Source of the DNA: Candidatus Helarchaeota archaeon
Lineage (GTDB): Archaea; Asgardarchaeota; Lokiarchaeia; Helarchaeales; RDOG01
Direction: 5' to 3'
Assembly (NCBI GenBank): GCA_019058315.1
Contig: JAHPZH010000002.1
Span: 448,001 to 512,000, forward strand
Length of the DNA: 64,000 bases
Shown: in pieces, positions 54,145 through 64,000 of the stretch
How the letters are laid out: each line of letters starts with the position of its first letter
How positions within the stretch are numbered: position 1 is the stretch's first letter
Translations under genes and position numbers: made by a program
Notes under the pieces: generated by a model
What the model was told of the DNA's origin: nothing
What the model saw: the letters and a program-made list of their open reading frames with translations, nothing else
Database searches by the model: none

Positions 54145-54972
54145 TTAAACTAGAGGATGAGCATAACAGTAAATACAGGCATGTTTACAAATTTGTTCAT
54201 TATAATTTCCAATATCCCTACTTTTTGTACAACCACAACCTTCACGTGTTGGGGTTTTCGCTGTTGAGCATTTCTCTTTGAAAAGTTTACTAAGATAATT
54301 TCCATCTATACAATGTGCTGAATATATATTAGGGATTTTAGCTAAATCAGGATTACAGCAAGAATACATTCGAATACCCAAATTTTTGCAAAGTTGCGCC
54401 ATAGGCTCAATAATTTTTATTTTTTCTTTTAGGGTAGGATCATAATATTCAAGTCCAAATTTCTTCGAGCGATTTATACTTTTTTTATACCAATTTGCAA
54501 AACTAAACACACAATTATTTATACCAAGATCTCCCACATGTTTTATAATAGTCTCAAAACTGTTTAAATTATTCTTTAATTCATTTTCCCCGCTTTCACG
54601 CCAAAATACTATTGGATCAAATCTATATTCTATATATTCAGGTCCATATTCTGCAACAAGTTGATTTAATTGATCTAGTCTTTTATCTAAACTAATTACA
54701 TTAGGTTCCCAACGCTTACAATTATTAATAGTAAATATAAAAAAGAGGTTATAATCATCAAATTCAGAAGAATTTTTCAAAAACTTTCCGAAATCCTTAC
54801 TCCAAAAAACGATTGAATGGACATCTGATTTTTTTAATGAAACTTTATATTTTTGAGTAGGATAAAAAGGATTCTTAACCATCACATAACCTTGATGTAT
54901 CTTTTCCAAGAACCAATCAAGATAAAATGCCGGAATATCAGTTCTTCTTGAAGCACTAATTATAGATTTCAT
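54145..54972 (-). CDS. DUF1848 family protein (radical SAM/SplB-related)
   Basis: IISASRRTDIPAFY, IVFWSK, YRFDPI, GCGCTKSRDIG..CKHACIYCYA. Confidence 0.92.
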   Translation of the reverse strand: MKSIISASRRTDIPAFYLDWFLEKIHQGYVMVKNPFYPTQKYKVSLKKSDVHSIVFWSKDFGKFLKNSSEFDDYNLFFIFTINNCKRWEPNVISLDKRLDQLNQLVAEYGPEYIEYRFDPIVFWRESGENELKNNLNSFETIIKHVGDLGINNCVFSFANWYKKSINRSKKFGLEYYDPTLKEKIKIIEPMAQLCKNLGIRMYSCCNPDLAKIPNIYSAHCIDGNYLSKLFKEKCSTAKTPTREGCGCTKSRDIGNYNEQICKHACIYCYAHPLV

Positions 54973-59732: not shown

Positions 59733-60509
59733 TTAACTTGGCTCCAATAATTCTTTTAATTTTAATTGAATATCTGGGGCTTCCATTATAGAAGATCCTA
59801 TCAAAAATGCATTTGCTCCTGCTTTTAGCAAATTTTTTATGTCTTGATTTGTATAAATTCCGCTTTCGCTGATTATTATGCTATTCGGAAACCTATTACG
59901 AATTCGTGGTATCATATCCAGTGTAGTTTTTAAATTAACCTTTAGAGTTTCTAAATTTCGGTTATTTATTCCAATAATTTTAGGCTCTATTCCTTGAATT
60001 CTATTAAGATCCTCAGTATCATGAATTTCCATTAATACTTCTAAGTTAAGCGAAATAGCGAGGTTATACAATTCTTGAAGAAGTTCGTTTGATAACATTT
60101 TCACAATGAGAAGAATTACGTTCGCTCCTAATTCCATGCCATGATAAATTTGTTTTTTGTGAAAAATGAAATCTTTTAACAGAATCGGTAATGATATACT
60201 CTCTCTAACACGTTCTAAAATCTCAAAACTACCATTAAAATAATTTGGTTCAGTCAATACACTTATTCCCACTACGCCTCCAAGCTCCATTTTTTTTGCC
60301 AAATCTCCTACATTTCTAAAAGAAGAAATACTTCCTTTTGAGGGAGAAGCAAATTTAATTTCTGATATTATTGGATTTTTTTTACTATTTTTTATCCTTT
60401 CAATTAAACTAATCCGTTTGGTATTAATTTGCTCCGGAATTTTATAATTTTTTAGAAAGGAGCTTAAAGTAATTTTCCGGTTTTTTAATATTTTATCCAA
60501 TATATTCAC
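59733..60509 (-). CDS. trpC: Indole-3-glycerol phosphate synthase
   Basis: ISEIKFASPSKG, ISVLTEP, LLKDFI, GINNRNL, ISESGI. Confidence 0.96.
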   Translation of the reverse strand: MNILDKILKNRKITLSSFLKNYKIPEQINTKRISLIERIKNSKKNPIISEIKFASPSKGSISSFRNVGDLAKKMELGGVVGISVLTEPNYFNGSFEILERVRESISLPILLKDFIFHKKQIYHGMELGANVILLIVKMLSNELLQELYNLAISLNLEVLMEIHDTEDLNRIQGIEPKIIGINNRNLETLKVNLKTTLDMIPRIRNRFPNSIIISESGIYTNQDIKNLLKAGANAFLIGSSIMEAPDIQLKLKELLEPS

Positions 60510-61564
60510 AGAAATTGTTCCTCCATTTTTTCTATTTTTTCTAAAGATCCTCCGGAATTTTTAATAAGTTCTTTAAGTTTTTTATATGCATTTCCACTAG
60601 AAATACTCTCCTTAGCTACATCTAGTCCTTCATTTATGGTTTTTGCTTTCTGTCCTACCACTATTCCAGCAGCTGAATTCAATAATACAATATCTGTCTT
60701 TTTTGAACTGTCTCCACTTAGAATTTTTATTGCAATTTTCAAATTTTCATCCAATAATCCTCCTTGAATATCCTTAGGTTCAGCTTTTGGAATTGAAAAA
60801 TCCTTTGGAGAGATATAAAACGTGTTAACCTTATTATTATTTAATTCGGAGATCTTCGTTTTACCCAAAGTCGAAATTTCATCCAAACCTGGCTCGCCAT
60901 GAACAATATATGCCGTATCAGTACCTAATGTTTTTAAAGCATTTGCCATTTTTTCTGTTATATTCGGATCAAAAACTCCTAGAAGTTGTGAATTAGCATT
61001 TGCAGGATTAGTTAAAGGTCCTAAAATATTAAACACGGTTCTCAATCCAATTTCTCTTCTAGGACCAATTGCATATTTCATAGCTGGATGAAATATTGGT
61101 GCAAACATAAAGCCTATTCCATTTTCAATACATTTTTCAACTATTTTAGGTTCTGCATTAATATTAACCCCAAATCCCTCAAGGAGATCAGCGCTCCCAC
61201 ACTTGCTTGTAACAGAACGATTACCATGTTTAGCTATATTAATACCCGCACCTGCAACAATAAATGCCGCGATAGTACTAATATTAAATGTCTTGATTTC
61301 ATCTCCACCAGTTCCGCATGTGTCTACTAAAACTTTATCATATTTTGGATTAATTTTACTGCAAAACTTTCTCATTATTTTGGCAAATGCAGCAATTTCA
61401 CTAAAATTTTCGCCTTTTTGTCTTAATAATACTAAAAAGGCTCCAATTTGTGCTGGAGTAGCTTTTCCAGACATAATTAATTCCATGGCTTGTTCAGCCA
61501 AGTCTGTTTCTAAATCTTTACCATTTGCTAACAAATTTAAGATAAATTTCATATCAGAAGTCAT
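60506..61564 (-). CDS. trpD: Anthranilate phosphoribosyltransferase
   Basis: DTCGTGGD, FNIST, KHGNRSVTSKCGSAD, FNILGPLTNP. GAGGTG SD before the ATG at 61564. Confidence 0.96.
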   Translation of the reverse strand: MTSDMKFILNLLANGKDLETDLAEQAMELIMSGKATPAQIGAFLVLLRQKGENFSEIAAFAKIMRKFCSKINPKYDKVLVDTCGTGGDEIKTFNISTIAAFIVAGAGINIAKHGNRSVTSKCGSADLLEGFGVNINAEPKIVEKCIENGIGFMFAPIFHPAMKYAIGPRREIGLRTVFNILGPLTNPANANSQLLGVFDPNITEKMANALKTLGTDTAYIVHGEPGLDEISTLGKTKISELNNNKVNTFYISPKDFSIPKAEPKDIQGGLLDENLKIAIKILSGDSSKKTDIVLLNSAAGIVVGQKAKTINEGLDVAKESISSGNAYKKLKELIKNSGGSLEKIEKMEEQFL

Positions 61565-61617
61565 AATAATCACCTCAAAATTTTAATTATTAATAAAACC
61601 AATTTCAAATAGCGCAT

Positions 61618-61850
61618 TTAGTAATGCCAGGACCAAGACCAGAAAAAAGAATTATGTGATTGAATATAATCTTGGTTAGTAGCATTAAAAATAACATTAA
61701 AAATAAAAAAAGATGTAAAAAAACTAATAAAATTGCTTTTATCGTAGATAAAGTCCTCTCTTCTGAAATTTTTCTTCCTTATAAAAGTAAATTCCAGTCC
61801 AATTCTCAGTCCACCGATTATCGCTAATTATCACTATTAAATATTTAAAC
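61618..61850 (-). promoter_or_regulatory. trp operon promoter and leader with Trp-containing uORFs
   Basis: TTTAAATA TATA-like box (61842..61849), GGTGGA SD, mini-ORF MDWNLLL (61779..61802), and a stop-free frame ending FFWSWSWHY* (61618..61803). Confidence 0.55.
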
Positions 61851-62208
61851 GTTGTTATTTTTCTGAACACATCCAAAAAACATTTTTTCAAATTATGAAA
61901 TCAGAAAATTAACAATTTATAGAATACATTGAAGAATTTACACTTATTTATCTTGTTTTTAAAAATTCTTGTATTTTGGGTAATTTAGCAAGATTCTCAA
62001 CCCTTTTATTCGATAATCTAAAATTTTAAAACCAATAATTTAATATTTTCACTCAATAGCATGAATTCTATCATCTATATGAATTTTATTTATAGAGCAT
62101 AATCTCATTTCTCATTTCATATGTCGAAATTTTTAAAAAGAACTTCAGTTTATTTTCCAATTATAAAGTATTTTTCAATTTATTAAAAATGACGAAGGGA
62201 GTGATCTA

Positions 62209-64000
62209 TTGAAATGTAAATTAGGTAAATACTCAAGAGTATTAGTATGTATTATTTCAATATTGGTTTTTTCTTGTTTCATAACGAATAATATAGTAAT
62301 TCCGAATATTTATGGTAATAAAAATAGCCTAACTGAAATAGATAATCCGACTGATGTTTTACTCGAAATAGAAGAGGCAGAGCTCGGCTTTTATAATACA
62401 ACGGGATATGCACGGGCAGTAGCAGTCTCGGGAGATGTGGCATATGTTGCTGACGATACTCAAGGCTTGCGGTGTATTAATATAACCGATCCAACAAATC
62501 CCTCTGAAATTGGTTTTTATAATACCTCAGGTGGTGCATGGGATGTTGCAATCTCGGGAGATGTTGCATACGTTGCTGATGGTTATAACTTAAGCTGCAT
62601 TGATATAAGCGACCCTACCAACCCTTCTGAGATTGGTTTTTATGATAACCCAGGGGTGACATATGGAGTGGCAGTCTCAGGTGATGTGGCATATCTTGCA
62701 GATTGGGGTGCGTTACGATGTGTGAATATTTCCGACCCGACCAATCCCTTTCTAATAGGCTCCTGCATCTCCGTAAACGCATGGAGTGTAGCAGTTTCTG
62801 GAGACGTGGCATATGTTGCTGCTTATTCCCAAGGGTTACGATGTATAAATATTACTGATCCGACGAGTCCCTCTGAAATAGGTACTTACAATACGACAGG
62901 AATAGCACGGAGGTTGGCAGTCTCTGGAGATGTAGCATATATTGCTGATAGCATTCAAGGTTTGGTCTCTATTAATATTACTGACCCAGCCAACCCCTCC
63001 CTGTTAGGTTTCAATAACAGTTGGGGGAGTCCAACTCGCGCACTAGGGGTGGCAGTATCCGGAGACCTGGCATATGTTGCGGGTAGTATCTTTGGCTTGC
63101 AAGTTGTTAATATAAGTAATCCGACTAATCCCCTCCTAATAGATTCCTATCTAACCCCTGGACAAGAGTGGGATGTAGAAGTATCGGGAAGCGTGGCATA
63201 CGTTGCTGACAGGCACCAAGGCTTGCGGTGTATTAAAATAAGTGAACCTATCACCCCCTATGAAATCGGCAATTGTCTAACTTTAGGCATAGAAGCATTT
63301 AGCGTGGCAGTTTCGGGAGATGTGGCATATGTTGCCGTTGCTGGCGCTTCTAATGATGGATACTTGCGGTGTGTAAATATAAGCGACCCGACTAACCCCT
63401 CTGAAATCGGCTCCTATTATTTTTTTGGAGAGCCACGTGGCGTGGTAGTTTCGGGAGATGTTGCGTATATTGCCACTTATACTGGAATTTTTGTGTGTGT
63501 AAATATAAGCGACCCGACCAGCCCCTCTTTAATCTGCTCTTTTTTTATCGGGGGAAATTCATATGGCGTAGCAGTATCGGGGGATGTTGCGTATATTGCC
63601 ACTGATGAACCAGACTTGCGGTGTTTTGATATTAGCGACCCGACTAACCCCTCTGAAATCGGCTCTTATTCTACCTCCGATTATACATTTGACGTGGCAG
63701 TATCGGGAGATGTTGCGTATATTGCCGCTGGTTCTGAGGGCTTAGTGTGTGTAAATATAAGTGACCCGACTAACCCCTCTGAAATCGGCTCTTATTCATA
63801 CCCAATAACAAGCGTGGCAGTATCGGGAGATGTTGCATACGTTGCACCTTCGATTGGAGGCTTGCGGTGTGTAAATATTAGCGACCCGACCACCCCCTCT
63901 GAAATCGGCTCTTATTCTACCTCCGATTATACATATGACGTGGCAGTATCGGGAGATGTGGCATATATTGCCGCTAATGGAACCTTTCGGTGTATAAATA
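62209..64000 (+). CDS. LVIVD-repeat (beta-propeller) secreted/surface protein, 3' truncated by window edge
   Basis: GGGAGTGA SD and TTG start, N-terminal hydrophobic signal/TM, about 13 repeats of ~41-45 aa (VAVSGDVAYVA..GLRCINISDPTNPSEIG). Missing from the track because there is no stop in the window. Confidence 0.88.
   Translation, partial: MKCKLGKYSRVLVCIISILVFSCFITNNIVIPNIYGNKNSLTEIDNPTDVLLEIEEAELGFYNTTGYARAVAVSGDVAYVADDTQGLRCINITDPTNPSEIGFYNTSGGAWDVAISGDVAYVADGYNLSCIDISDPTNPSEIGFYDNPGVTYGVAVSGDVAYLADWGALRCVNISDPTNPFLIGSCISVNAWSVAVSGDVAYVAAYSQGLRCINITDPTSPSEIGTYNTTGIARRLAVSGDVAYIADSIQGLVSINITDPANPSLLGFNNSWGSPTRALGVAVSGDLAYVAGSIFGLQVVNISNPTNPLLIDSYLTPGQEWDVEVSGSVAYVADRHQGLRCIKISEPITPYEIGNCLTLGIEAFSVAVSGDVAYVAVAGASNDGYLRCVNISDPTNPSEIGSYYFFGEPRGVVVSGDVAYIATYTGIFVCVNISDPTSPSLICSFFIGGNSYGVAVSGDVAYIATDEPDLRCFDISDPTNPSEIGSYSTSDYTFDVAVSGDVAYIAAGSEGLVCVNISDPTNPSEIGSYSYPITSVAVSGDVAYVAPSIGGLRCVNISDPTTPSEIGSYSTSDYTYDVAVSGDVAYIAANGTFRCIN
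62380..64000 (+). repeat. Intragenic tandem repeat of ~120-135 bp (LVIVD units)
   Basis: Recurrent gtggcagtatcgggagatgttgc and gacccgactaacccctctgaaatcggctc; higher GC than the rest of the window. Confidence 0.85.

Follow-up and report, generated by a model that had tools for sequence, protein, structure and literature searches.

The operon for tryptophan (Trp) biosynthesis, trpDCFBAEG, of Candidatus Helarchaeota archaeon (assembly GCA_019058315.1) is preceded by a leader that is likely to work as a ribosome-dependent Trp sensor, similar to an attenuator and with transcription termination as its output. The DNA analysed here, called the window, is a stretch of 64,000 nucleotides (nt; positions 448,001 to 512,000 of contig JAHPZH010000002.1). 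Coordinates are window positions unless a contig is named, and leader and operon lie on the minus strand. The leader has an open reading frame (ORF) ending in a cluster of Trp codons within a folded RNA, an arrangement that recurs before Trp genes in dozens of related archaea. Because of this recurrence it is very probable that the family as a whole gauges Trp through the translating ribosome. An attenuator-like Trp-codon sensor of an archaeal trp operon had been proposed in the first-pass annotation of this DNA, and the proposal has gained strong comparative backing from the leaders of Asgard trpD and trpB2 genes, a paralogous leader in the same genome, in-frame TGG codons and a co-varying hairpin. 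Judged by its sequence, the locus is the long-leader (Helarchaeales-type) variant of the Asgard Trp leader, and trpB2 of the same genome has a partner leader of its own.

The segment 61850-61565 would be transcribed as the leader of the operon and operate as one member of an Asgard-wide family of Trp-sensing leader ORFs. A ribosome translating the leader would have to decode three UGG codons located two codons short of the stop codon. When no ribosome is present, these codons are predicted to be locked in a long helix with an upstream RNA strand, forming a rod whose 3' end runs into U-rich RNA before trpD. Scarcity of charged tRNA-Trp would stall the ribosome on UGG and keep the helix open, while with plentiful Trp the ribosome would reach the stop codon and depart, leaving the RNA to refold. 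The fold would thus set the share of polymerases entering trpD, the refolded rod and the U-tracts leading to early termination and the open state to read-through.

The leader and its operon

The operon order trpD-trpC-trpF-trpB-trpA-trpE-trpG, already read in the first-pass annotation, is upheld by Pfam and NCBIfam and reaches down to 54991. The genes after trpD match IGPS, PRAI, PALP, Trp_syntA, Chorismate_bind and GATase, and the operon trpB scores 588 bits with NCBIfam trpB. The features of the leader are the following, from 5' to 3' on the minus strand:

61842-61849, minus strand: TATA-like box TTTAAATA, candidate promoter of leader and operon, recognized by its letters
61618-61827, minus strand: long open frame of 69 sense codons and TAA (stop 61620-61618), ending in SHNSFFWSWSWHY (...FFWSWSWHY-stop)
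61810-61815, minus strand: Shine-Dalgarno (SD)-like GGTGGA, 7 nt 5' of the mini-ORF
61790-61808, minus strand: conserved 5' block TGAGAATTGGACTGGAATT, identical at 19/19 positions to the trpB2 leader of contig C7
61779-61802, minus strand: mini-ORF TTG GAC TGG AAT TTA CTT TTA TAA (MDWNLLL-stop) with one Trp codon, putatively translated
61723-61743, minus strand: 5' strand of the basal helix of the rod, from folding
61605-61697, minus strand: ORF with ATG in an alternative frame, MLFLMLLTKIIFNHIILFSGLGPGITKCAI-stop, from a reading of the frames
61667-61687, minus strand: upstream strand UAAUGCUACUAACCAAGAUUA, pairing with the Trp codons at 61641-61622 (10 + 8 bp) in the minimum free energy (MFE) and centroid folds
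61627-61641, minus strand: Trp-codon cluster TGG TCT TGG TCC TGG, presumed sensor, with homologous clusters in 54 distinct leaders
61614-61627, minus strand: stop-codon hairpin GCAUU-ACUA-AAUGC of 5 bp, its own arms scoring 7 against 3.3 for swapped 3' partners
61592-61612, minus strand: 3' strand of the basal helix, with UUGGUU and U4, pairing with 61743-61723
61595-61598, minus strand: first U4 tract, within the 3' strand of the basal helix
61577-61580, minus strand: second U4 tract, abutting the trpD GAGGTG on its 5' side
61571-61576, minus strand: trpD SD sequence GAGGTG
60506-61564, minus strand: trpD, first gene of the operon (ATG at 61564; Pfam Glycos_transf_3, 298 bits)

All coordinates in the first-pass annotation were correct. 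It had described the TATA-like box, the GGTGGA followed by overlapping ATT (61803-61801) and TTG (61802-61800) codons and the mini-ORF opened by that TTG, each of which is present. The frame that it opened at the ATT counts the 61 sense codons announced, and is actually open from 61827. Its WSWSW segment ends two codons ahead of the leader stop (W-H-Y-stop). The end of the frame had been placed about 50 nt ahead of trpD; the spacer between leader stop and trpD ATG measures 53 nt. TTTAAATA may be the promoter of both leader and operon, and similar A/T boxes are found 25-50 nt 5' of the conserved block in the trpB2 leader of this genome and in the related genome G001.

The host genome (G000; 5.79 Mb, 30.5% GC, 12 contigs) has 92 TGGNNNTGGNNNTGG sites in the 11.6 Mb of its two strands, which puts the expectation for the 300 nt ahead of trpD at about 0.002. 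Intergenic short frames with at least 3 W in the last 12 codons number only 13 genome-wide. We estimate from base frequencies that a frame of 69 codons stays open in this DNA of 25% GC with a probability of ~0.003; the other two frames across the leader are full of stops. A chance origin of the Trp-codon leader is excluded.

A family of Trp leaders in Asgard archaea

The search for TrpD covered 161 class genomes and 400 genomes across the phylum, and the upstream DNA was retrieved. A comparison of Asgard trp leaders for conserved TGG clusters and co-varying pairs had been called for in the first-pass annotation, and both were found, the pairs in the arms of the stop-codon hairpin; a consensus fold by RNAalifold was not obtained (see below).

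Within the class, 31 of the ~38 loci with usable upstream DNA have, 146-510 nt ahead of trpD, an ORF whose end is rich in Trp codons. Examples of the encoded peptides are MATEKIILFRWQWLWRA, MAPENNSFWRWQWPWRWQ, MTTAKNFVWRWQWSWWRWQ, M..FRWQWLWRA and M..FWRWQWPWRWQ, all followed by a stop, and the leader MAILPRTIAWSWRR-stop is found in genomes of 59-65% GC. In the relative G046, whose genome is complete at 6.04 Mb, the trpD leader ends in ...NKAWPWHKL-stop. A similar ORF is positioned 146-181 nt upstream of trpB2 at 24 of the 30 class loci retrieved, including genera without trpD. In four genomes outside the class (G309, G308, G398 and G399) a W-rich ORF next to trpD is followed by a hairpin and U tracts. 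The G309 and G308 leaders end in M..TTWFCWLFWYW-stop and ...FLPWWHWF-stop, respectively, while those of G398/G399 end in ...SWWW[MI]-stop and have a GGUGGA-UGUAAAAAC-UCCACC hairpin with the stop codon in its loop.

The partner leader of the host genome (L089/L090; contig C7:84345-84664, plus strand, outside the window) spans 320 nt before a TrpB-like gene (NF009057, 673 bits). Its open frame of 66 codons ends in ...SLFFWCWQ-stop, followed by a hairpin and U5/U6 runs. This leader has an ATG, in frame and in the loop of a GC-rich hairpin, GAACGCCGC...GGCGGCGUUC.

The coding character of the family was assessed in 54 distinct leaders, with TGG counted in the last 48 nt. TGG is in frame in 190/205 cases, and from one TGG to the next the distance is divisible by 3 in 137/151, adjacent WW included. 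The stop codon comes 1-2 codons past the last Trp codon in 47/54 leaders, 52/54 have an in-frame ATG and the median ORF is 17 codons long. This pattern of in-frame TGG, stop spacing and ATG would be expected of a translated frame and not of a protein- or tRNA-binding repeat.

It is very unlikely that the UGG repeats and the 5' block bind a Trp-activated protein (TRAP-like or TrpY-like) or uncharged tRNA-Trp (T-box-like) with the frame being incidental. Periodic UGG triplets do resemble the repeated triplets bound by TRAP, and the conserved 5' block and a palindromic module of the class family resemble operator sites. Known archaeal trp control is also exerted by proteins, TrpY and Tar (PMC6737238). 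A binding site does not account for TGG codons in frame, spaced by 0, 3 or 6 nt, with an ATG before them and a stop within 1-2 codons in nearly all leaders. Furthermore, no TRAP (TrpBP, PF02081) was found in the whole genome with a search that was positive for the B. subtilis control, and the repeats are in-frame UGG, not (G/U)AG. An Rfam scan of 60500-63000 with E up to 10 gave only noise, with no T-box and no RF00513 (Trp_leader); RF00513 had no match in the whole genome either, while the E. coli control was found.

Across the class trpD is present in 40/161 genomes and trpB2 in 135/161. Many lineages thus seem to have retained, still under a Trp leader, just the final step of the pathway, which salvages indole.

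The start codon of the long frame

Of the three hallmarks of the family, the trpD leader has the W-rich end with a stop 1-2 codons on and the stop-codon hairpin with co-varying arms. It lacks the in-frame ATG, being one of only 2/54 leaders in this situation. The first-pass annotation had cautioned that the long frame had no ATG, GTG or TTG, and there is indeed none across its 69 codons. Translation of the trpD leader copy is therefore putative. The matching frames are open over 66 codons in the trpB2 leader of the same genome and 82 codons in G001. The trpD leader differs from G001 by indels of 12 and 6 nt, the G001 ATG falling in the 12-nt stretch that is absent here.

Three routes could account for the missing start. 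In the first, translation would plausibly begin at a near-cognate codon of the long frame: CTG 61809-61807, which aligns with an in-frame TTG of the host trpB2 leader and a CTG of G001, ATT 61803, or AUA 61785-61783 overlapping the mini-ORF stop. The second, also plausible, would have the T6 run 61648-61643 read with one more T, owing to an assembly indel or a -1 slip, so that ATG 61697 is joined to WSWSWHY-stop; a T7 at this position would give an ATG-initiated leader of 26 codons, MLFLMLLTKIIFNHIILFFWSWSWHY-stop. In the third the start codon would have been lost. The first route is favoured because the long frame is open in all four leaders of the long-leader family and because of the 12- and 6-nt indels relative to G001. 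The contigs with TrpD from JGI metagenomes included no same-species copy, only relatives of 45-69% identity with mostly a trpE-G-D order, and do not inform on the choice between T6 and T7.

Loss of the start codon would fit a decaying or silent relic, Trp control being then exerted elsewhere and the ATG-bearing trpB2 leader still functional. Such decay is improbable. It would explain the absence of a canonical start, the location of the G001 ATG in the missing 12 nt and a stop-codon hairpin of just 5 bp. Yet the frame has stayed open in AT-rich DNA against the odds given above, the three TGG, the stop spacing, the 19-nt block and the rod (z -4.0) are all retained, and non-canonical starts are plausible at CTG 61809, at the AUA of the mini-ORF stop or at ATG 61697 via the T6 run.

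RNA structure of the leader

The trpD leader folds in a 161-nt rod of -29.1 kcal/mol with z -4.02, none of 200 shuffled sequences folding as well, while its antisense strand reaches z -1.50 only. In the first-pass annotation, AACCAAGA (61677-61670) had been assigned to pair with UCUUGGU in the Trp codons. This pairing turned out to be part of a larger helix of 10 + 8 bp, present in the MFE and centroid folds of the rod. The alternative that it offered, AACCAA with the UUGGUU located after the stop (61602-61597), is correct as far as complementarity goes but is in no predicted fold, as UUGGUU pairs with 61743-61723 in the basal helix. The 3' strand of the rod ends in GGUUUUAU, and another U4 lies ahead of the trpD SD.

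The trpB2 leader has the same rod topology (z -3.55 and -3.93). A compensatory change from U-A to G-C distinguishes the two paralogous leaders, GCAUUA:UAAUGC in trpD versus GCAGUA:UACUGC in trpB2. The GCAUU of the stop-codon hairpin also has an alternative partner, the upstream AAUGC at 61686-61682, and of the two conformers only the rod is supported by folding.

In most relatives the last Trp codon or codons and the stop are inside a hairpin, whose complementarity is kept through 33 distinct arm pairs (GGCGU/ACGCC, GCACGC/GCGUGC, GGCGCG/CGCGCU, GCGCC/GGCGC, GUUGGC/GCCAAC, GGUCU/AGACC and CCUGGCGUC/GGCGCCAGG, for instance, and GCAUU/AAUGC here). RNAalifold gave no consensus pairs on a MAFFT alignment of 44 leader sequences because the register of the stop hairpin differs between lineages. 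A test of own versus swapped partners was used in its place: the own 3' flank beats swapped flanks in 43/55 leaders, related leaders not being independent in this count. A hairpin score of 8 is reached by 64% of the leaders versus 22% of shuffles. The alignment of the long leaders from six genomes was too divergent outside the 5' block for covariation.

A proposed link from the leader fold to trpD transcription

Termination as the output of the sensor is in line with the composition of the RNA downstream of the leader ORFs. In the family as a whole, T makes up 46% of the 60 nt past the leader stop versus 34% of an upstream control window, and T-runs of at least 5 are found downstream in 30/57 leaders versus A-runs of at least 5 in 9/57. 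U5-U6 runs follow the hairpins of the host trpB2 leader and of G001.

Several observations weigh against a hairpin-controlled terminator fed by a translated leader. Intrinsic termination in archaea reportedly requires oligo-U and not a hairpin, according to work attributed to Santangelo and Reeve; control of the terminator by a hairpin is thus an assumption. T-runs of at least 5 are equally frequent in the upstream control window (32/57), U content and the asymmetry of T versus A being all that differs. In the trpD leader itself, the long U-tracts noticed in the first-pass annotation do exist as U7 but 5' of the Trp codons, inside the frame, and only two U4 tracts come after the stop. In silico, the basal helix persists when the Trp codons are covered by a ribosome footprint. 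Covariation backs no antiterminator conformer in the long-leader family, represented by just two genomes. Upstream of trpE, no clear W-rich leader is seen in members of the same order that have this gene first (G003, G005), and the lack of a canonical start described above adds to these points.

As the main alternative, the same UGG-stall sensor could have a different output, acting on mRNA stability or processing, or on initiation or re-initiation at trpD, an option that we consider rather unlikely. The short leader-trpD spacer is compatible with coupling (53 nt here, 77-89 nt in G001 and 43 nt in G308), as are the weak U4 tracts, the only ones past the stop; to our knowledge hairpin-dependent termination is not established for the archaeal RNA polymerase. 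In most relatives, however, the stop codon is 146-510 nt from the next gene, too far for coupling, and the RNA that follows is rich in U, with an asymmetry between strands. Control of initiation is also difficult to reconcile with the predicted state of the trpD SD. A switch masking this sequence was considered and rejected: its predicted unpaired probability is 0.03-0.05 and stays there when a ribosome is placed over the Trp codons or the stop. The weak hairpin that was supposed to reach the SD in the first-pass annotation was not seen, since the SD pairs with early trpD codons at every ribosome position. Read-through set by the ribosome on the UGG codons, with termination as output, is retained as the likely mode of action of the trpD leader.

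The conserved 5' block and its one-Trp mini-ORF

The 19-mer TGAGAATTGGACTGGAATT occurs just twice in the genome, in the trpD and trpB2 leaders. Its 13-mer TTGGACTGGAATT is identical in G001 and TTGGACTGGAAAT is found in G398/G399, which belong to another class. The two host leaders, G001 and G398/G399 share an identical TTGGACTGGAA(T/A)T, while the G001 trpB2 leader has the one-base variant TTGGACTGGGATT.

The block carries the mini-ORF, and the long Trp-rich frame overlaps this mini-ORF at its start region. The corresponding frame reads MDWN-stop in the host trpB2 and G001 trpD leaders, M..LLDWD-stop in the G001 trpB2 leader and MEVYRLDWK-stop in G398/G399. The consensus is (L)-D-W-(N/D/K)-stop, starting at a TTG 7-8 nt past the SD-like element or at an upstream ATG. 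G308/G309 have a different conserved mini-ORF, MGYRVWI.., likewise with one Trp codon. The block may be an additional Trp checkpoint upstream of the first, a site for a protein or an RNA element.

The invariance of this 13-19-nt block across classes invites a more speculative and doubtful extension, in which the long leader would be a two-stage translational Trp sensor peculiar to Asgard archaea. Pausing or termination on the mini-ORF would gate entry to the long frame, and a stall at WSWSW would then hold open the rod, which would otherwise hand the transcript to U-tract- and aCPSF1/FttA-dependent termination. Gating by the mini-ORF, for example through re-initiation at the AUA overlapping its stop, would explain a long frame without a canonical start. 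If this reading is true, leader-peptide attenuation would be shown for the first time with an archaeal, eukaryote-like polymerase, and with a gating layer unknown in bacteria.

Relation to known systems

Leader-peptide attenuation is the textbook case of transcription-translation coupling and is regarded as bacterial. Among known systems the enterobacterial trpL (RF00513), a ribosome-mediated transcription attenuator, comes closest. The trpD leader resembles it in having an ORF upstream of the trp genes with Trp codons clustered a few codons before the stop, in the base-pairing of Trp codons and stop, which recalls the E. coli 1:2 hairpin, and in the U-rich RNA ahead of the first structural gene. 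By analogy, the logic would be shared too, charged tRNA-Trp being sensed via ribosome speed. The short ORF of trpL contrasts with the long frame of the long-leader family (35-69 codons), which has no canonical start in the trpD copy. The host, the RNA polymerase and the termination signals are archaeal, there is no match to RF00513 in sequence or structure and no GC-rich terminator stem with a U8 run. The 3' strand of the rod holds the Trp codons, which pair upstream, whereas those of trpL are in region 1 of a four-segment switch. The 5' block with its one-Trp mini-ORF is an addition, and the same type of leader stands also before the stand-alone trpB2.

A further comparison is with the short Lokiarchaeia leaders (13-23 codons, M..W.W.W..-stop). 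They serve both the trpD operon and trpB2 and share the W-x-W-x-W end with the stop 1-2 codons on, the hairpin over the last Trp codon and stop and the U-rich RNA downstream. In contrast to the long leaders they have an ATG, their Trp codons are on a 5' arm that pairs with a downstream CAUUGG box, a box of the 5' untranslated region pairs with a box past the hairpin and a further palindromic module follows. The long leaders (here, G001, G308, G309 and G398/G399) have the 5' block and mini-ORF, and in the host genome the partner of the Trp codons lies upstream.

The archaeal regulators TrpY of Methanothermobacter and Tar (TK0271) of Thermococcus also control trp genes in response to Trp, but they are DNA-binding factors that act at promoters and not Trp-codon-rich RNA leaders (PMC6737238). 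They are the only regulators of archaeal trp operons that this paper names, stating that "little is known" (PMC6737238), and full-text literature searches turned up no Trp leader peptide described in an archaeon. The poly-Cys attenuators of mycobacteria, which are ORFs located before the genes for Cys, are reportedly likewise short, rich in codons for the amino acid concerned and dependent on ribosome stalling, with no reliance on a classical terminator (bioRxiv 10.1101/834739). They differ in being bacterial, Cys-sensing, leaderless and AUG-initiated.

To the Asgard leaders the locus adds the long-leader architecture, the 5' block with a one-Trp mini-ORF and a regulon of two members, the trp operon and trpB2, in one genome. 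If the proposed mechanism is true, amino-acid sensing by the translating ribosome extends to the archaea nearest to eukaryotes, and transcription-translation coupling with a eukaryote-like RNA polymerase gains a direct functional read-out. The leaders would in addition provide a natural test bed for the modulation of archaeal termination (U-tracts, aCPSF1/FttA) by RNA structure and ribosomes.

Additional elements of the short leaders and neighbouring genes

A second module, TGTGCTTTATTAWATTGAWTTCCAATAT...ACACA, is found 100-200 nt past the stop of short leaders (L006, L007, L009, L010, L029, L031 and others) and also in trpB2 leaders (L096, for example). It is a nested palindrome with co-varying arms (GTGTTG...CAACAC in L026) that includes a TATA-like TTTATTATA. 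This module may act as an RNA hairpin in competition with the CAUUGG box, or else as a second promoter with its operator.

Long-range complementarity of UAAAAUAUGAUUUA with UAAAUCAUAUUUUA is seen around the short leader ORF (L010, L026, L029, L041 and others). Its arms are the 12-14 nt just 5' of the leader ATG and 12-14 nt located 3' of the CAUUGG box, with a compensatory UAAGGAU/AUUCUUA in L042, and the helix brings the start region and the first U-tract together.

An ORF of ~75-99 amino acids separates leader and trpD at several loci (L003, L006, L007, L009, L028, L030, L038, L041, L043), overlapping or abutting trpD in a number of them. Its product had no Pfam match for L006, the one tested.

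A screen of the host genome for leaders rich in His, Thr, Val, Cys, Arg and other residues, crude and not exhaustive, returned parts of small ferredoxin-like ORFs or unrelated spacers. The only other similar-looking W-rich intergenic frame (C1:81722-81772, ...WFLWPWRYRI-stop) was discarded as an out-of-frame reading of an interrupted PAC2-like gene. This gene, coding for a proteasome assembly chaperone-like protein (C1:81700-81830, plus strand, outside the window), is seemingly split by a frame-breaking insert of ~26 nt (...GFYGLGATGY / insert / IAIRHMVEALDV...), which may be a tRNA-type intron.

The trp operon is followed, 19 nt after trpG and on the same strand, by a DUF1848 gene (54145-54972, minus strand; 251 bits) which may be co-transcribed with it. 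The divergent neighbour of the leader (62209-63999, plus strand) codes for a beta-propeller protein with 12 LVIVD repeats (367 bits). The gene has ~45% GC, compared to 30% for the genome, which suggests a foreign origin or a strong compositional bias.

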